This document shows positions 1,699-47,503 of a stretch of DNA of 64,000 nt, one piece after another. The position numbers were made by a program, and so were the translations under genes. Source of the DNA: a virus. Position 1 is the stretch's first letter, and each line of letters starts with the position of its first letter. The notes below the pieces were generated by a model. That model ran no database searches and had not been told where the DNA came from. It saw only the letters and a program-made list of their open reading frames with translations. Location of the stretch: the IMG/VR virus record IMGVR_UViG_3300013939_000002, positions 1 to 64,000 of that record; one strand, written 5' to 3'.

Positions 1699-1943
1699 TG
1701 AGTCCAAGCACACGCAGATACAAAGAAGCTGTTAAAAGAGGGCAACAGGATGCTTATAGCGGAAAATATAATCCACCAGAACATTTTGATGAACGACAGC
1801 TGAGGTTGTATGACAAACACTATAATGAAACTAAGAATAAGTGTGAACAGATTGAATTAGATGCTGAATTTATGGCTAATGCTTATGGTTTCACTTATGT
1901 CCGAGATATTAATGGAAAATTTAAGTTGGAGAAATTAGATTGA
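1692..1943 (+). CDS. hypothetical protein
   Basis: Track ORF; start overlaps previous stop, stop overlaps ligase TTG start. Confidence 0.65.
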   Translation: MVMSPSTRRYKEAVKRGQQDAYSGKYNPPEHFDERQLRLYDKHYNETKNKCEQIELDAEFMANAYGFTYVRDINGKFKLEKLD

Positions 1944-4087
1944 AACAAATTGGAAAGACACTATACGCAGCAAACAAAGATGGCTCTGCCCAGCAATGGT
2001 CTGTGTTTGTTGATGGAAGTACTATAACTGTTGAATACGGAAAACATAACGGAAAATTGCAAACAAAACAGACAATTTGTGAATCAAAAAATGTTGGGAA
2101 GGTCAACGAGACAACACCAGAACAACAAGCAACCTTAGAAGCTGAGTCTAAATATCGTGATCAAATTCGTAAAGGTTATGTAGAATCAATTGATGATGTT
2201 TCGTTCTCTACAGATAAGACGCGGGTAATGCTTGCACAGGATGCTTCCAAGAAGCCACACTTTGTTAAATATCCGTGCCATACACAACCGAAACTTGACG
2301 GATGCTTTACGTACGCAACTAAAGTGCTGACTAATATCGGCTTGGTTTGCATTGGAGATATTGTAGAAAATAAAATGAAATTGTTGGTGCTCAGCTATAA
2401 CGAAAAAACTGAAAAATTAGAATATAAAAAGATTACCAACTATTTTAATAACGGATTAAAACAAAAAGAAGAGTGGTTACGTTTTGATAACAACGCCATA
2501 ACAAAAAATCATAAAATATTGACAGATGCAGGGTGGAAGCCTTATGGTGAGTCAAATCACATGTTATCACCAAATCCAAAGTATCTAGGTATTGTTTGTG
2601 GCATGCTACTCGGAGATTCTATTGCCAACATAGAAAAAAGAAATCTTTCTATTAACACACCCACATCGTGGAGGTTGGATTACAATGTAGGAGGAGAGGA
2701 TTTTCAGTATGGTTTAGAGAAATCAAAATTATTAAAAGATATTAGTTATAGATGTAGGGATAGGCTTTCTGGATATAACAAACCTTGTCAACAATACGTA
2801 TCTACCGCAATGACTAACAACTCTTTTCCTTTGTCAATATTCTACACAACAGATAAAACAGACGATAATTTCGGAAGGAGGGTTACGATTATAGACAGAA
2901 AATTACTGGAAAGTGTATTTACAGATGAGTCACTAGCATTATGGTATTTTGACGATGGTTCTTTGCACTACAATAACGGGAATAAAGAAACCCCAAGGAT
3001 GTTCTTAAGTGTCGCAAGGTACTCCGACGAGACAATAGAAGGTTTTGTGGAGCTTTTTAAAAAGAAGTACAATGTTACTCCATCACTAGGTTATTATGGA
3101 AAAGATAAACGACTTTCTTTCAATACAAAAGATTCTACTTATCTTTTTTGGAAAATATCAAGAATTGCCGGTAATTTGTTGCCTAGAAAAATACCAGAAG
3201 GTTTTAGTTGTGGTAGTATTGAACCACAAGACCAATTAATTAACATTACAATTGAACATAAAAATGCTTCTTTAGGTGGTTTACCGCAATTTGCATTTGA
3301 TATAGAAGTTGAAGATAATCACAATTACTTTGCTAATAATAAGCTGGTACATAATTGCCGCTCTTTAATCACTTTTGACGACAATGGAGAACCTGTATTT
3401 AATAGTCGTGGTGCTAAAGTTTATCCAAAACATGAACATTTAGCTGAACAACTAAAACAGTTGCGTTTAGAAACAGGATTTGATAGTTTTGATGGTGAAC
3501 TGTATGTTCACGGACTTCCGTTGCAAAAGATTGTAAGTCTAGTAAAGAAAGTTCAACCTGATAGTTCAAAACTTGAATATCGAATTTATGATATTCCAAG
3601 TGAAAAGGTTTGGTCTGAACGAGAAAAAGATTTGACAGAGTTATCAAAGCATGTTAAATTGAATATCTCTACAGTTCCTGTAACAGTTTGCAATAATGAA
3701 CAAGAAGCCAAAGAATCTATTCATGAGTATATGGAGCAAGGCTACGAAGGAACGATTCTGCGCAATATGAATGGAAAATACGAGTTTGGGCAACGAAGTA
3801 ATGATTTGCTAAAATGGAAAGTGTTTGAAAGCGATGAAGCTTTAGTATACGATGCTGAAATTGATAAAAATGGAGAAGGTGTTCTGCTGTGCAAAATGCA
3901 GAATGGAACAGAGTTTCGTTGCAAAATGAAAGGAACACACGAAGAGCGCCTATATGAAGAACAGTTGAAACTTGTTGGAAAATATATTACCTTTACTTAT
4001 CAAACCTTAACGGTTGATGGTGTTCCACAGTTTCCGGTTGGAATTTCTGTGCGAGAATTAAATGAAAATTGGGAACCTTTAGAATGA
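1940..4087 (+). CDS. ATP-dependent DNA ligase, intein-containing precursor (715 aa; mature about 364 aa)
   Basis: Motif I KLDG (aa 118-121) followed by a Cys-initiated insert; after ...LVHN the extein resumes CRSLITF; downstream ligase motifs SFDGELY, EGTILR, LLKWK. Confidence 0.9.
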   Translation: MKQIGKTLYAANKDGSAQQWSVFVDGSTITVEYGKHNGKLQTKQTICESKNVGKVNETTPEQQATLEAESKYRDQIRKGYVESIDDVSFSTDKTRVMLAQDASKKPHFVKYPCHTQPKLDGCFTYATKVLTNIGLVCIGDIVENKMKLLVLSYNEKTEKLEYKKITNYFNNGLKQKEEWLRFDNNAITKNHKILTDAGWKPYGESNHMLSPNPKYLGIVCGMLLGDSIANIEKRNLSINTPTSWRLDYNVGGEDFQYGLEKSKLLKDISYRCRDRLSGYNKPCQQYVSTAMTNNSFPLSIFYTTDKTDDNFGRRVTIIDRKLLESVFTDESLALWYFDDGSLHYNNGNKETPRMFLSVARYSDETIEGFVELFKKKYNVTPSLGYYGKDKRLSFNTKDSTYLFWKISRIAGNLLPRKIPEGFSCGSIEPQDQLINITIEHKNASLGGLPQFAFDIEVEDNHNYFANNKLVHNCRSLITFDDNGEPVFNSRGAKVYPKHEHLAEQLKQLRLETGFDSFDGELYVHGLPLQKIVSLVKKVQPDSSKLEYRIYDIPSEKVWSEREKDLTELSKHVKLNISTVPVTVCNNEQEAKESIHEYMEQGYEGTILRNMNGKYEFGQRSNDLLKWKVFESDEALVYDAEIDKNGEGVLLCKMQNGTEFRCKMKGTHEERLYEEQLKLVGKYITFTYQTLTVDGVPQFPVGISVRELNENWEPLE
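2303..3355 (+). mobile_element. intein (351 aa) with LAGLIDADG homing-endonuclease domain, inserted in ligase motif I
   Basis: Starts CFTYATKVLT (block A), TKNHKILT (block B TxxH), LAGLIDADG-like LLGDSIANIEK and WYFDDGSL, ends DNHNYFANNKLVHN followed by +1 Cys. Confidence 0.9.
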
Positions 4088-20474: not shown

Positions 20475-22837
20475 GTGAGTATTAGTGTAATTAATAAACA
20501 CGGAAATATTAATGGTTGGAGTGACCAGAAAATTTATAATGCTGTAAATAAAGCAGCAGAACGAGTCAACAAGCGACTATCAGAAACAGAGTTACAAACT
20601 TTACGCGAATCAGTTAAATCTAAAGTTTCATCAGAGATTCATGTTTCTAATCTGCACAACATTGTTTCTCAGACATTAATTCAATTGGGATACAAAGATA
20701 TTGCTGAATCTTACATGGCTTATCGAAACTATAAAACTAATTTTGTTAAGTTGTTAGACGATTTATATCAGAAGGCACACACACAGCAATTACACACGGG
20801 GATAAAGAGAATGCTAATTTTGAGTCATCTCTTATCTCAACAAAACAAGCATTGATTCGGGGATATTTAACCAAAGAACTTTATAAACTTCACTATTTAA
20901 CAAAAGAAGAACGGGAAGCTATTGAAACTGGTTTCATATATTTTCACGATTTGCGCGACCTAATTTTTAACGGTTTTAACTGCTGCCTTTTGATATGGGT
21001 AATGTTTTGAATGGTGGTTTTGAGATGGCTAATCTCAAATATTCAGAACCCTCTAATGTTTTAAGTTGTTTGCAAGTTATTGGAGATGTAACTTTATCAG
21101 CTTCAGCACAATCTTTTGGTGGGTTCACAATCCCAGATATTGATAAAATTCTAGTTCCTTATATTAAGAAATCCATTGTTCGTTATGGGAAAGAAGCTGT
21201 TGATTTCGGAATTGATAATCCATATAAGTATGCGTTATACAAAACAAACAATGACCTAGAACAAGGCTTCCAAAGTCTTGAAATGAAGTTGAACAGTGTA
21301 ACAAGTAGTCGTGGCGACTATAGTTTTGTAACGTTAACTTTTGGTAATCTTGATGTCCCTGATGATCGTCAATATCAGGTCATGGCTTGTAAAGCAATCT
21401 TGAAAAATCGCAAACGTGATAACCCTGTTGTTTTTCCAAAACTGGTGCATTTGTTTAGTTGGGAACAATACGAAAATGTTCCAGAAGCAGCAGAATTATT
21501 TGATTTATGTATTGACTGTTCTTGTAAAGCATTGTATCCAGACTATTTAGCAATTGATACAGTAGGGAAAGTTGCAGAAGCATATAAAAAGAGCAAAAAA
21601 GTAATAAGTCCGATGGGCGAACTATAATACAAAGTCGCGTGATTACCCATCTAAAACCTATCTAAAACGGGAACCTCTCTGAAATGAGACAATCCGTTGC
21701 TAAATGGATAAAATCCTAAATGCCCAACGACTAACCGTGATGAGTGTAGCGGTGTAGGACAGAAGCTAATGCTGTTCCAAATGGTAGGCCATAACAATAA
21801 AAGTTATGGAAGATATAGTCTGATCTGCATGGTGACATGCAGCAGTTCATTAGAGAACGGGAGAGGCCTTGCGAACCTCTCTGAACAAAATGTGTCGCGC
21901 ATTCCTGTCTGAATTTTCAGATGAAAACGGAGAAATATTCTTTACAGGTAGAGCAAACATAGGCGCTGCTTCTTTGAATCTTCCTATGATTTATATGAAA
22001 GCCTTAGAAGAAAACCTTGATTTTTATGAAACATTGGATTATTATTTAAACCTGATTCGGGAGTTTTTGAAGAAACGTTATGTTGCGGTTGCAAACAACA
22101 AAGCCAGCACCAATCCTTTGTGTTTCACACAAGGTGGTCTTGCAGGTGGAAACCTAAAACCAGACGAAAAGATTGGTGATATTGTTAAAAGTTTTACAGC
22201 TTCTTTTGGTATCACTGCTTTAAACGAACTGAATTATCTGCACGAGCAGAAACAGTTGCACGAATCAGATAAACGTTTTGTTAATGAAGTTATTGATTTC
22301 ATTTCTGAACGTGTAGAGACTTTCAAGAAAGAAGATGGACATCTTTATGCATTGTATGGAGTTCCTGCTGAATCGCTTGCTGGAACACAGCGCGAACAGT
22401 TTGTAGCTAAGTATGGCATTATTAAAGGTGTTTCAGATAAAGCATACTTTAGCAACAGTTTTCACTGTCATGTAACAGCAGAGATTTCACCATTTGAGAA
22501 ACAAGACCAAGAATATGAATTGTTCCATAAAATTAACGGTGGGCATATTCAATATACACGAGTAGATACAACAAAACCAAATGTCGTTAAGGGAATTGTT
22601 CTTCGTGGCATGAGTATGGGATTCTATTCTGGAATCAATGCCAATAAATGTTTCTGTGAAGATTGTGGTTGGTCGCCAGAAAAGGATATTGAAGTTGATA
22701 AATGTGAAAACTGTGGTAGTCTAAATATTCTTGAAATTAACCGAGTTTCAGGCTATCTTGGTTATTCAAAACAAAAACAAAACACACGTTTCAATGATGC
22801 TAAAATGGCAGAATTGAAAGATCGTATTAGTATGTAA
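20475..22837 (+). pseudogene. nrdD: anaerobic ribonucleotide reductase NrdD: three frames in exon 1 (two apparent frameshifts) plus a group I intron
   Basis: ATP-cone (20475-), DKENAN...FIYFHDLRD...NCCL in a second frame, MGNVLNGGFE...ISPMG in a third (to 21618), exon 2 CRAFLSEF... to the C-terminal CxxC...CxxC and RVSGYLG glycyl-radical region. Confidence 0.85.
21619..21892 (+). ncRNA. group I (T4 td/nrdD-like, IA2-type) self-splicing intron, no internal ORF
   Basis: Splits ISPMG|CRAFL; contains CTATCTAAAACGGGAACCTCTCTGAAATGAGACAATCCGTTGCTAAAT and ATATAGTCTGA..ATGGTGACATGCAGC..CTGAACAAAATG, near-matches to the T4 td intron core; ends in G. Boundaries +/- a few nt. Confidence 0.85.
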
Positions 22838-31499: not shown

Positions 31500-31539
31500 T
31501 GTTCGCTAGCGAATTAACCGAAGGTTAACAACCAATAGG

Positions 31540-31800
31540 TTGCACCGCTTTGCATACAAAACTGGAGACAAAGAATACACAATAAATAAGTTAAGCGGAG
31601 AAGATATCCGATTCAAATTAGATAATCCACAACAACCTTATATTCAAAGAATTAATTACTTTGATGGTAGAAAGAACGTTAATAGTTTTGGTTATAAATA
31701 TGTTGTGACTGACCTAGTTAATTGGAACTTGAAAACAAGACACATTGTGCATCTCCCAGAGAATGCAATCCAACAAAGTTATTCAGCTATGCCACAATAA
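31540..31800 (+). CDS. hypothetical protein (start uncertain)
   Basis: Track ORF with TTG start and only a weak GAAGG 15 nt upstream; preceded by hairpin TTAACC-gaa-GGTTAA. Confidence 0.45.
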   Translation: MHRFAYKTGDKEYTINKLSGEDIRFKLDNPQQPYIQRINYFDGRKNVNSFGYKYVVTDLVNWNLKTRHIVHLPENAIQQSYSAMPQ

Positions 31801-32142: not shown

Positions 32143-32180
32143 CACTGTTTGACCGTAAGGTTAACCTCACACAATAATTT

Positions 32181-32214
32181 AAGGACAGGTCTGATGGCTT
32201 GTCCTTTTATTTTA
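32181..32214 (+). terminator. rho-independent terminator closing the plus-strand block
   Basis: AAGGACAG-gtctgatgg-CTTGTCCTT followed by TTATTTTAT. Confidence 0.75.
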
Positions 32215-33521
32215 TCTGTAGAAACACAACACAAATTTACTTAAGACTAATCGAATAAATAACCTAACTGAATACATTATCCCACCTTAAATTTTATACT
32301 TCTTAACCCAACCCCACCCCAGCAGAATCTATTATATGCCCCTGCCTCTGATTATTCATCTTACTGAAAATATCATAACTGTTATGTTTAAACCTACTTA
32401 CCATCGTATCTATATTATAGTTATTATTCAGCTCGACATCTGAATCATCATATTAAACTTAGCCTTACGCAAGATTGATATCTTAGTTGTTAGCGGCCTT
32501 ATTCTATCATTAGCTATACATCATAGGTGCTAGGCACGTGAACCCAAGCCTGTATAAATATACAGTATAAATTGGCAATATCCTAAGAGGCTCCCAGACA
32601 GCCAACTAACCAGAACAACTCTGATTGCGTCCAATATGTCCTGCCTTACTTTCAGTTCCTTTCTGACAGTCCTTCAATACAAATATTATTATGCAGCCTA
32701 TTGGCTGTTAGCTGAAAGCTAAGTCGCAATGGCGACCATTAATCAAACATTAAAATAATTTTTATTTGTTTTATTATGCCTACATAAGAGTTCTTCTTAA
32801 TGTCAATACTGTATAAACATCCAATATTAAATAACCTAATAAAATCAAACAGTTAACTAAACAGATAGAAACTCTGAATTACATAGAGAACCTAGACAAT
32901 AACAGAATAAAAAACTTATACTCAATAATGCTCTATTTAACATAACTACAAGTTTTGCGCACTACACTATTTAATTCTGATTCGGACAATATTTCATGCT
33001 GTTTGAGAATTATTACTATTTAGGCTGCAAGAATAGTTTATATAATAACTTTATACAAAATAGAATAATTTATTATGTTAAATATAAGCAATACAAATAG
33101 AACCGATTTAGCCTAGAACTAACACGCAATCTGCAATTGTTACCAGTTCAGCTACTAAACAATAATGCGAATGATTATCGTTTAGATTAACATTCAATGT
33201 TTCTTAATGGGCAGTTTGAGGGATTCAGTAATACTGATTAAGCTTTAAATGTTGGCGCTGATACGTCAGCTTAAGCGTCGCTCCGCAGTAACGTCAGGAG
33301 AGAAAGAGAAGATTGTTAAACAAAACAAGTAAAAATCTGCACAGTTGATACAGAACATCAACCCTTAACAAATAGGATAAAACATTACGACAATATAAAT
33401 AAAATTAAATACTATAACAAACAGAGATTAGTAAATCTTCTCAGTGGTAAATACCGCTACTAGTATTCTGGATCAGAACTAAAGATCATAATGATGAAAG
33501 CAATCAGTTCTAATCTAAAAA

Positions 33522-33684
33522 CTATATAATAACAACAGCAAGTTGCTGATTTTCAAAGAAAATCTTGCAATCTTGTTTTGTTATTATATTCCATAAACAG
33601 CTTAACTTTTCAATGATTGATATAATAACAAAATAACAACTGCTATCGTAGATAGCTTGGTTGGTTACTGTTGTTATTATATAG
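33522..33684. repeat. nested inverted repeats sharing an ATATAATAACAA core, with two internal palindromes
   Basis: Outer perfect 17-bp IR CTATATAATAACAACAG 33522-38 / 33668-84; inner 15-bp IR 33575-89 / 33620-34 (14/15); palindromes 33539-76 and GCTATC-gta-GATAGC 33642-56. Confidence 0.85.
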
Positions 33685-34100
33685 TTTTGCTCGGCTTTGC
33701 CTCGCAAAACTCCTGCTATTATCTCTGAATTGTTCACTGTTGTTCATCCCTTTAAAGCACAGAAGCTCAAGAGCTGTTCTAAAGCTTCCAGAACATTTTT
33801 ATTCTTTCTATTATCTTTATTTTCTATCTGTTTTTCTTTCTTGTCTGTTTCTTTTCTGGTTATTAATACAGTCATTATTTATAGTTTATTATAACTTTTG
33901 TTTATATGTTCTGATTATGCCTGTGTTGAATTTTGAGAGGTTTAATTGTAGGGTTTAGTTGGTATATTCGGTAGGTATTTAGGGCTAATGCAGATGTTTC
34001 TGGACGTATTATATTTGATTTATTAGGTATGTTTGCGGTGGATTTATGGTTATGAGGTAGTGTGTAGTAAAGTATTACTGTTAGTACTTACTGTTTAAAT

Positions 34101-34133
34101 ACAAAAACAAAAAGGCCACCATAAAGGCAGCCT
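34101..34133 (-). terminator. rho-independent terminator closing the minus-strand block
   Basis: On minus RNA: AGGCUGCC-uuuau-GGUGGCCU (two G-U pairs, so strand-specific) followed by UUUUUGUUUUUG. Confidence 0.8.
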
Positions 34134-34161
34134 CTTATTATTTCATATTATATTGTGTTGT

Positions 34162-34308
34162 TTATTCTTGCTCTAATTCTTCCCATTCTGTTTTGCGTTG
34201 TGTATGTTTGGTTTTGTTCAACTTTCGGCCCTGTTGAGTTCGCTCAATCTCAGAAAATTTGAATTTGTTGGTTTTCTGGAATTTTTCAACATTGCTATTT
34301 GTTTGCAT
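34162..34308 (-). CDS. small basic hypothetical protein (48 aa)
   Basis: ATG 34308 after AAGGAAATAGTAA; below track cutoff. Confidence 0.45.
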   Translation of the reverse strand: MQTNSNVEKFQKTNKFKFSEIERTQQGRKLNKTKHTQRKTEWEELEQE

Positions 34309-38966: not shown

Positions 38967-39087
38967 AAGGTGTTTTCCTGTTTGATCGAAGTTGTTTGCT
39001 GTTGATGTGTATAAGATTAAGCTTAATTCAATGTAGTGTCAACGGTTATCTATAAAATATTTCTACGATTTTCTTTTAAAATAAAGG

Positions 39088-39118
39088 TTGCACTTATAAT
39101 CTATTGTGATATTATAAT
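39088..39118 (+). promoter_or_regulatory. orphan plus-strand promoter-like element TTGCAC-19-TATAAT inside the minus-strand block
   Basis: TTGCAC 39088-93; TATAAT 39113-18; the 19-nt spacer is suboptimal. Confidence 0.5.
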
Positions 39119-39124
39119 AGACAT

Positions 39125-39588
39125 AAAGGACGGGAGGTGAAAGACTCCGAGACAAACATCAATACTGCCTGTTATTCGGTAAATGATAATAATTCCTATG
39201 CAGGCTATGCCTGTTGAGTCTCCGACTCAATCCACAAGTGGGCATTCTCATTCCACTCTGTAAACGCTTCTCATTCAGGCTAGTTTTAACATTTCATTAA
39301 CACTAAACAGAAATTTCAAGAAAATAGAATCTGAAATTTTAATTTCGTCTCTGGCATAAAGCAAAACCAATTTCCAAAGTTGAAAAAGTAATTTGTTGTA
39401 TGGATCTCAATCGCAGAAAATAAAATTTAGAATTTGAATTTTTAGTTTTTGCTTTGGTTCTTGTCTTTTTGAAAAATAGAAACTGATTTATTAAAAATGT
39501 CTTTTTGCTTTATAGTTTGTAATTATATAGGCAGGAAAAGTATTAGGATAGGCTCTAATTCTTCGTAGAAACGATTCTAAGAGGTTTT
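39125..39588 (+). ncRNA. candidate ~0.47-kb plus-strand noncoding transcript (unclassified)
   Basis: No ORF on either strand; bounded by the promoter-like element and a plus-strand-only intrinsic terminator (39561-39588); 5' part has several hairpins (TTGAGTC-tcc-GACTCAA; alternative GCCTG/CAGGC/GCCTG pairings). Confidence 0.45.
39561..39588 (+). terminator. plus-strand intrinsic terminator (repeat copy R2)
   Basis: CTTCGTAGAA-acga-TTCTAAGAGG followed by TTTT; on the minus strand no U-tract follows. Confidence 0.65.
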
Positions 39589-39677
39589 CTAGCATATAGG
39601 CAAGCAACCCTACAAGGTATGTTGTAAAGTTGCTCAGGATGTATTCTAGGGAGGATTATAATACTCTTTATTAAAGT

Positions 39678-47397: not shown

Positions 47398-47444
47398 TTT
47401 GTTCTCCTTTTCTAAAACGCTCTGTAAGGCATCTACCATTGCAA

Positions 47445-47480
47445 CCTAACGGTTGTTAGCTTTCAGCTAACCGCATAGGC
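47445..47480 (-). other. long imperfect hairpin with GTTAGCT-gaa-AGCTAAC core
   Basis: Minus sense: CCTAtgCGG-GTTAGCT-gaa-AGCTAAC-aa-CCGtTAGG; the core also occurs at 32707-32722. Confidence 0.6.
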
Positions 47481-47503
47481 GGCACCACAATCAATTTTGA
47501 TAT

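Follow-up and report, generated by a model that had tools for sequence, protein, structure and literature searches.

What occupies a long gap without genes in a phage genome that is otherwise tightly packed? We addressed this question in a 64,000-nucleotide (nt) stretch of viral DNA (IMG/VR virus record IMGVR_UViG_3300013939_000002, positions 1 to 64,000; hereafter, the window), in which an earlier reading of the letters alone (hereafter, the original prediction) had marked positions 32,215–34,100 as a strand-asymmetric zone, free of open reading frames (ORFs), where two transcription blocks converge. That reading named four candidates: one or more large structured non-coding RNAs (ncRNAs), a replication origin or terminus, a packaging boundary, or decayed genes. 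We lean, with slightly better than even confidence, towards a cis-acting DNA region that is insulated from transcription and in which packaging and/or late rolling-circle replication would begin, on the model of the gap between gp1 and gp2 of the Vibrio phage ICP1 (Mohonavirus). Membership of this ICP1 type is backed by position and architecture, not by sequence homology.

Position of the zone and its counterparts in ICP1-like phages

The window phage is MyoC35, a relative of ICP1. MyoC35 was described as a 116.8-kb myovirus of eel skin-mucus metagenomes that clustered with ICP1, without mention of a non-coding zone (PMC4310352). DNA identical to the window was found in contigs from SRR1578065 and SRR1578068, eel skin-mucus metagenomes described as the source of MyoC35; these two public contigs are 100% identical over the zone and hence provide no variation. 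Window genes include nrdA/B, ligase, tRNA nucleotidyltransferase, and a Dda-like helicase, with nrdAB DNA ~75% identical to that of Aeromonas Plateaulakevirus phages and one small leftward gene that matches ICP1 gp18. On the + strand to the left of the zone lie nrdAB, PhoH, thymidine kinase, and ligase, and on the − strand to its right lie the gp18 homologue and UvdE. The zone is therefore placed, as in ICP1, between the end of a rightward nucleotide-metabolism block and a leftward early block; in the ICP1 order, the rightward block runs to the record end and is followed by the 1.3-kb ORF-less gp1–gp2 gap. This gap contains the virion DNA termini of ICP1 determined by PhageTerm (431 [+] and 891 [−]), and late-infection coverage suggests a rolling-circle origin beside the termini; the theta origin is near 60 kb (PMC7145576). 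It also contains packaging-dependent cut sites and a 14-bp stretch that is mimicked by the PLE satellite and required for PLE transduction (PMC11417361).

Every relative examined is also ORF-free at the equivalent junction, with gaps of 1.77 kb in L008 (of the diverged relatives, the closest), 1.58 kb in the ICP1-like L010, 1.38 kb in L011, 1.47 kb in the PWH3a-P1-like L132, and 1.4 kb in Aeromonas phage phiA009; the intact genes in relatives that would have spoken against the original prediction were not found. Cumulative GC skew, a check that it had proposed, reaches its maximum in the window at the zone. As the positional counterpart of the ICP1 gp1–gp2 region at this skew maximum, a packaging boundary or replication origin or terminus is the best supported of the four candidates, albeit indirectly. 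In broader searches, the zone had no blastn match among 50,697 phage records, megablast of 24 kb around it recovered only an intron/nrdD fragment, protein-seeded scans of viral contigs yielded no close relatives, and the zones of all lineages have only short k-mers in common.

The zone itself agrees with the description in the original prediction. There are no ORFs of at least 100 aa between 31239 and 34375, and the longest inside the zone are 95 aa (TTG, 33671–33958, +) and 71 aa (GTG, 33522–33737, −). When block-strand ORFs of at least 45 aa were taken as genes, 32143–34161 (2,019 nt) was the longest uncovered segment of the 64 kb (runners-up: 742 and 711 nt), and the zone accounted for 26% of the intergenic DNA in the window. 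No ORF is common to the zone and L008, in which a 100-codon open frame becomes three frames. A 43-aa ORF inside the polypurine tract (33744–33875, −), annotated by one public gene caller, has lost its ATG and is frameshifted in L008; therefore, this call is probably spurious. The predicted asymmetry in composition (G-poor, T/C-rich, and G/T-rich segments) was borne out by base counts: the + strand at 32220–33500 contains 13.2% G and 18.8% C, the reverse of the adjacent + block (19.9% G, 14.5% C), 33700–33900 contains 47% T and 19% C, and 33955–34080 contains 28.6% G, 42.9% T, and 5.6% C. The purine minimum of the whole 64 kb, measured in 150-nt intervals, lies at 33785.

Short hairpins are concentrated in the zone. 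Using perfect hairpins (stem of at least 5 pairs, loop of 3–4 nt, at least two GC pairs) and 300 shuffles as the null, we found 12 in the zone compared to 1.9 ± 1.4 in shuffled sequence (shuffle maximum 6), a ~6-fold enrichment. Their density of 5.9/kb in the zone compares with 2.1/kb for the remaining intergenic DNA and 1.3/kb for coding sequence. Zones of relatives are similarly dense (observed/expected: L008, 10/1.5; L010, 17/1.8; L011, 16/1.1; ICP1, 15/1.5; L132, 10/1.3). Several hairpins of the ICP1 (L001) and L010 zones have identical stems and reverse-complemented loops (gta/tac, cta/tag), which is a signature of loop flipping in DNA palindromes. At 32300–32325, a G-quadruplex could arise on the − strand from G-runs (GGGGTGGGGTTGGG and, a further 19 nt upstream, GGGG), and long G/C runs also occur near the left edge of the L008 zone.

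Predicted terminators and C-rich stretches at the zone boundaries

The strand-specific terminator that had been proposed on each side was recovered in both cases (Table 1). Because the stems contain G-U pairs, the predicted GC-rich hairpin with its U-run is specific to the transcribed strand at both boundaries: folding energies for the transcribed and the opposite strand are −16.2 and −7.9 kcal/mol at the + terminator, and −15.6 and −7.1 kcal/mol at the − terminator. The − terminator is kept in L008 although two extra genes (143 and 80 aa; L008 10970–11674) are inserted before it, between the T7-1.1-like gene and the conserved terminator. Judging from these two genes, the zone boundary is a place of gene gain and loss. 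In the window, the last leftward gene adjoining the zone (34162–34308, −) encodes 48 aa and matches Pfam PF08200, the T7 gene 1.1 protein (23.2 bits, cut-off 21). T7 gene 1.1 lies just downstream of the T7 primary replication origin.

Rho-dependent terminators use rut sites, roughly 80 nt of unstructured RNA with more C than G. Past each terminator, such a composition is present in the would-be read-through RNA. On the + strand, 32246–32323 (78 nt) contains 25 C against 3 G (top 0.08% of such intervals, counting the two strands together), and on the − strand, 34006–34083 (78 nt) contains 21 C and 2 G (top 0.06%). These are the two most extreme co-directional C>G intervals in the 64 kb, and they lie 30–40 nt beyond each terminator. 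Both are nearly structure-free, with a minimum free energy (MFE) of −4.4 kcal/mol for 32225–32374 and of −2.6 to −7.1 kcal/mol for the − strand stretch, where GGnTTTA direct repeats lie at 33939, 33951, 33974, and 34040. In relatives, the C:G ratio past the + block is 18:1 (L010), 23:2 (L011), 18:0 (L132), and 29:2 (ICP1), without sequence conservation. In L008, it is 12:4 past the + block and 20:4 past the − block, where the sequence has diverged and the composition is kept. This pattern is consistent with fail-safe Rho-dependent termination that would insulate the zone centre.

A conserved core with a composite palindrome

L008 (gp18 82% identical) is the sole diverged relative behind the conservation and compensatory-change evidence in the window. 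Compared to L008, the zone is a mosaic in which block A, block B, and a 63-nt island can be aligned and the remainder cannot. Identity to L008 is higher in block A than in the adjoining protein-coding sequences (CDS; 81–87%), and the mismatches of block A by phase (18/26/12) differ from the expected codon bias of CDS (e.g., 30/6/13).

The left part of block A is a palindrome built from ATATAATAACAA copies at 33524 (+), 33578 (−), 33620 (+), and 33671 (−), with no further exact copy within the window. It folds with z-scores of −8.9 (+ strand) and −9.7 (− strand). All 65 of its 65 pairs are kept in L008, with two changed on both sides and one changed on one side to G-U, and substitutions are fewer in paired columns (5/130) than in unpaired columns (8/41; P = 0.003). 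This comparison indicates that the palindrome is maintained by compensatory changes. A scan of viral contigs with a DNA pattern for the 12-mer pair produced one match, in an unrelated giant virus, and a metagenome scan for the palindrome arm produced 113 single random matches, of which 0 were homologous. We rejected ATATAATAACAA as a general phage promoter, given that its near-matches elsewhere share no context and have no −35 box; promoter-like sites occur at chance level (18 vs. 18.1 expected). To the right of the palindrome, the polypyrimidine/polypurine tract contains period-16 and period-11 arrays (Tandem Repeats Finder, TRF) and is where the purine content of the window is lowest.

The left half of the zone is less conserved, and the palindromes that the original prediction had listed are all present there. 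The CTGTATA-aa-TATACAG palindrome (32550–32565) belongs to the island, which is 84% identical to L008 over 63 nt and surrounded by unalignable DNA. Mismatches in block B show no 3-periodicity (22/15/14 by phase), and the block evolves, as far as these counts indicate, at roughly the synonymous (neutral) rate. The TTAGCT-gaa-AGCTAA (32708–32722) and GTCGC-aatg-GCGAC (32723–36) palindromes are parts of a triple-hairpin cassette, and an ACGTCAG direct repeat (33263 and 33291) lies further to the right.

The triple-hairpin cassette has four copies in the window (31502–31542, 32694–32736, 39201–39241, and 47442–47482), all intergenic, that covary at 10 of 15 pairs; the three intra-block copies have the same orientation relative to transcription. 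It corresponds to no Rfam family. A covariance model of the cassette matched these four copies and one copy in the L008 zone, and none else. The L008 copy (L008 12358–12404) is at another position and in the opposite orientation, and the syntenic L008 sites lack the other copies; therefore, the cassette appears to behave like a small mobile or indel-prone structured element. One copy lies in a 711-nt ORF-free gap (38967–39677), which ranks second in size among internal gaps, together with a 1-mismatch copy of the ATATAATAACAA 12-mer. The right part of this gap (39305–39677) is 91.6% identical to L008, above most genes, and the gap may be a regulatory element or ncRNA.

Table 1 Features of the ORF-free zone in window coordinates.
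Feature	Position	Strand	Basis
Intrinsic terminator of the rightward (nucleotide-metabolism) block	32181..32206	+	11-pair stem then T-run
C-rich, G-poor, unstructured stretch past the + terminator; proposed rut-like backstop (putative function)	32222..32400	+	base counts, MFE
Conserved island: GC hairpin and CTGTATA-aa-TATACAG palindrome	32529..32565	.	comparison with L008
Triple-hairpin cassette copy, ~45 nt, including TTAGCT and GTCGC palindromes	32694..32736	−	covariation among copies
Block B, weakly conserved non-coding	32770..33014	.	79–82% identical to L008
Two tandem hairpin-TTAAGC units in a GC-richer island; candidate cleavage sites	33225..33276	+	hairpin scan
Purine tract and GATTGTTAAAC motif, homologous to the L008 AAGTTGTTAAGCA site	33297..33326	+	local matches
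Block A, conserved non-coding core	33516..34030	.	89.1% identity to L008 over 514 nt
171-bp composite palindrome (four-way junction)	33518..33688	.	four exact ATATAATAACAA 12-mers, alternating orientation
29-nt hairpin AGTTTTGC..GGC-loop-GCC..GCAAAACT	33683..33711	.	single L008 difference, in the loop
64-nt polypyrimidine/polypurine tract with repeated A-tract units	33796..33859	.	almost invariant in L008
C-rich, G-poor, unstructured rut-like stretch past the − terminator, with GGnTTTA repeats	33896..34100	−	base counts, MFE
Intrinsic terminator of the leftward block	34110..34136	−	11-pair stem then T-run

A candidate motif connection with the ICP1 termini

In ICP1_2006_E (L014; the PhageTerm strain), TGTTAAGC occurs at 426–433 and 888–895, both published termini lie inside these copies, and each copy abuts a GC hairpin. 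Both copies are kept in L010, 463 bp apart. Over an 885-nt core that includes the two termini, L010 is 87% identical to ICP1, with unrelated flanks. L132 contains a single TGTTAAGC copy in 20 kb, which is in the zone beside a hairpin, L011 contains three GTTAAGC-n3-GCTTAAC palindromes, and L008 contains AAGTTGTTAAGCA, where a 13-mer is identical to ICP1 884–896, which includes PhageTerm position 891. Of 11 TGTTAAGC copies in the loci of relatives, 9 fall in the zones, although these cover 8.7% of the DNA (P about 1e-8), a count in which ICP1 and L010 are homologous and the L011 zone is extended over a doubtful 57-aa ORF. The left end at 431 and right end at 891 of ICP1 would fit an exact 461-bp terminal repeat, as opposed to pure headful packaging.

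In the window, GATTGTTAAAC (33310–33320) lies in local alignments with L008 at two places, one of 30 nt (80%) and one of 19 nt (95%), and TTGTTAAAC at 33313 is homologous to the exact AAGTTGTTAAGCA of L008, as a diverged copy. The two tandem units located 40–90 nt upstream of GATTGTTAAAC read TCAGT-aat-ACTGA/TTAAGC and GCTGA-tacg-TCAGC/TTAAGC. We regard this link between window motifs and the ICP1 termini as a lead, not proof.

Taken together, these features suggest the following arrangement. Each of the converging blocks would stop at its predicted strand-specific intrinsic terminator, and Rho loading on the C-rich read-through RNA past each terminator would keep transcription out of the centre. 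The protected centre would hold late genome-processing signals, namely the TTAAGC and TTGTTAAAC motifs (33225–33326) and the core (33516–34030). At the core, the small terminase and/or a late rolling-circle initiator may bind and bend the DNA, and cutting would occur at the motifs near the core.

Several observations weigh against this reading. Sensitive BLAST between the zone and the ICP1 pac region found no alignable similarity, only short motifs; the exact TGTTAAGC is absent from the window zone, and by itself TTGTTAAAC is statistically unremarkable. A distance of ~200 nt separates block A from the motif cluster, the two candidates for the pac site. The phiA009 gap has neither hairpin enrichment nor C>G stretches, showing that the architecture is not universal. 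Block A conservation and the compensatory evidence derive from a single diverged relative, and the palindrome folds equally on either strand as RNA, so that an RNA role may also be possible.

A bolder version for the whole family is tentative, and we consider it unlikely: ICP1-family phages, the window phage among them, would cut concatemers at hairpin-flanked TGTTAAGC-type motifs in an insulated zone, not at a simple headful pac site. The ICP1 copies would bound an exact short terminal repeat, the palindromic core would load the small terminase or a late-origin nickase, and in rolling-circle replication the hairpin arrays would serve as structures of single-stranded DNA.

Alternative explanations

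It is unlikely, in our assessment, that the conservation in the zone reflects RNA structure, with one or several small to medium ncRNAs (the 171-nt four-way junction and the triple-hairpin cassette) expressed from promoters inside the zone. The strong z-scores and structure-preserving substitutions of the palindrome would fit such RNAs, as would the covariation of the cassette and its uniform orientation in the three intra-block copies. Nevertheless, the palindrome has complete Watson-Crick symmetry and can form on either strand, which would be expected of a DNA element. Upstream of the core there is no sigma-70 promoter that has a −35 box; promoter-like matches are at the chance level given above. 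ICP1 expresses abundant ncRNAs from other ORF-less gaps, yet its transcriptome reports non-coding transcripts at gp139–140 and gp135–136 and none between gp1 and gp2 (PMC7567579). A search with Rfam 15 (gathering and E-value thresholds), as the original prediction had called for, covered the window and five relatives and found nothing relevant in the zone or its counterparts, including no covariance-model match to GOLLD, ROOL, HEARO, or OLE. A tRNA scan of the window found none. Folding z-scores in sliding 150-nt intervals were at background on either strand except at 33425–33724 and, weakly, at 32600–32824; outside the palindrome and cassette, nothing folds better than shuffles. The large ornate ncRNA among the original candidates is not supported: there is no extended stable structure over hundreds of nt and no covariance match.

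We find it improbable that the zone is a mostly non-functional spacer, where transcription blocks and replication forks meet and rearrangements and mobile palindromes gather, with only the terminators (and possibly the rut-like stretches) being of importance. In favour of this explanation, ~1.3 kb (32215–33500) is largely unalignable between two close relatives, with indels and a relocated, inverted cassette, block B evolves at about the synonymous rate, and the cassette, as a mobile element would, occupies some syntenic sites and is missing from others. Against it stand block A, which exceeds the neighbouring genes in conservation and whose substitutions avoid breaking pairs, and the gap length of 1.3–2.0 kb kept in every lineage examined in otherwise tightly packed genomes. 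The concentration of the rare TGTTAAGC in zones also argues against a spacer, as does the implication of the homologous ICP1 gap in packaging (PMC11417361).

Still less probable is a primary (theta) origin in the core, with the four 12-mers as initiator iterons beside an AT-rich, easily unwound tract. The 12-mers are exact and found nowhere else in the window, an AT-rich polypurine tract and short direct repeats adjoin them, and the zone lies at a GC-skew turning point. This turning point is, however, a maximum at which blocks converge, which is terminus-like, whereas the origin-like divergent turning point is at ~59 kb, and the 12-mers are arranged in inverted pairs instead of direct repeats. 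The neighbouring genes include no evident initiator, and the theta origin of ICP1 (near 60 kb) is far from the gp1–gp2 gap (PMC7145576). Decayed genes, the last of the original candidates, are not supported, given that tblastn of 26 flanking proteins of relatives against the zone found no gene remnants and that its best-conserved part has neither codon periodicity nor a shared ORF.

Other features of the window

A group I intron (21601–21842, +; Rfam RF00028, 70.6 bits) lies between the ORFs 20995–21627 and 21869–22837. For the DNA flanking this intron, the matches are nrdD genes (anaerobic ribonucleotide reductase) from other phages; therefore, the two ORFs are probably an intron-split nrdD. 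In addition, a 715-aa DNA-ligase ORF (1940–4087, +) contains a LAGLIDADG homing-endonuclease-like segment (residues 328–403) and a helicase-like segment, which suggests that it carries an intein or inserted domain.

Implications and comparison with known systems

ICP1 is a major model of phage-satellite conflict, and its small terminase, exact pac definition, and rolling-circle origin are still open (PMC11417361). In this context, ICP1 and its relatives of the Vibrio type all carry a hairpin-dense, ORF-free, and apparently insulated zone at this junction, with phiA009 having the gap alone, and a rare 8-mer, TGTTAAGC, marks both published ICP1 termini and recurs in the zones of relatives. The zone and TGTTAAGC are concrete, mutable targets for work on packaging and replication. 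For annotation, we propose that such gaps in ICP1-like metagenomic phages be labelled as probable packaging/replication control regions, with no spurious small ORFs. The assignment in the window is sensible but unproven, and the zone is not a new kind of element.

Among known occupants of large ORF-free phage gaps are GOLLD, ROOL, and the ~800-nt long non-coding RNA of ICP1 (gp139–gp140). The window zone lacks the covariance match, tRNA neighbourhood, and extended thermodynamic structure of GOLLD and ROOL, and the ICP1 RNA sits elsewhere, in the lysis cluster. The C>G stretches resemble rut sites in being almost structure-free and in keeping their composition in relatives without sequence conservation, although their C-richness could instead be a relic of former antisense coding DNA.

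Classical pac sites, such as the hexamer arrays of P1 pac and pacL/pacC/pacR of SPP1, consist of repeated recognition boxes and bent DNA. The window zone is comparable in having short repeated boxes that flank the candidate cleavage region, and A-tract or bent segments, within a few hundred bp of DNA that is non-coding or dispensable. It differs in that P1 and SPP1 pac sites are 100–300 bp long and usually located in or beside the small-terminase gene, whereas the zone greatly exceeds that length and has no terminase genes next to it.

The closest counterpart is the ICP1 gp1–gp2 gap. Of the two, ICP1 is the one with mapped physical termini. Small genes diverge from the ICP1 gap (gp1, gp2–6), whereas the window blocks abut the gap directly. 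ICP1 contains two exact TGTTAAGC copies 462 bp apart, compared to TTGTTAAAC and two TTAAGC within 90 nt in the window, and has nothing like the 171-bp palindrome with four 12-mers. Nevertheless, the two gaps, both without ORFs, agree in position, are similar in size (1.3 vs. 1.9 kb), and combine a conserved non-coding core and variable flanks with dense short perfect hairpins. Both also have a C-rich stretch past the last + gene and TTAAGC-type motifs adjoining hairpins, and the hairpin-TTAAGC units of the window resemble the hairpin-flanked TGTTAAGC sites at the ICP1 virion termini.

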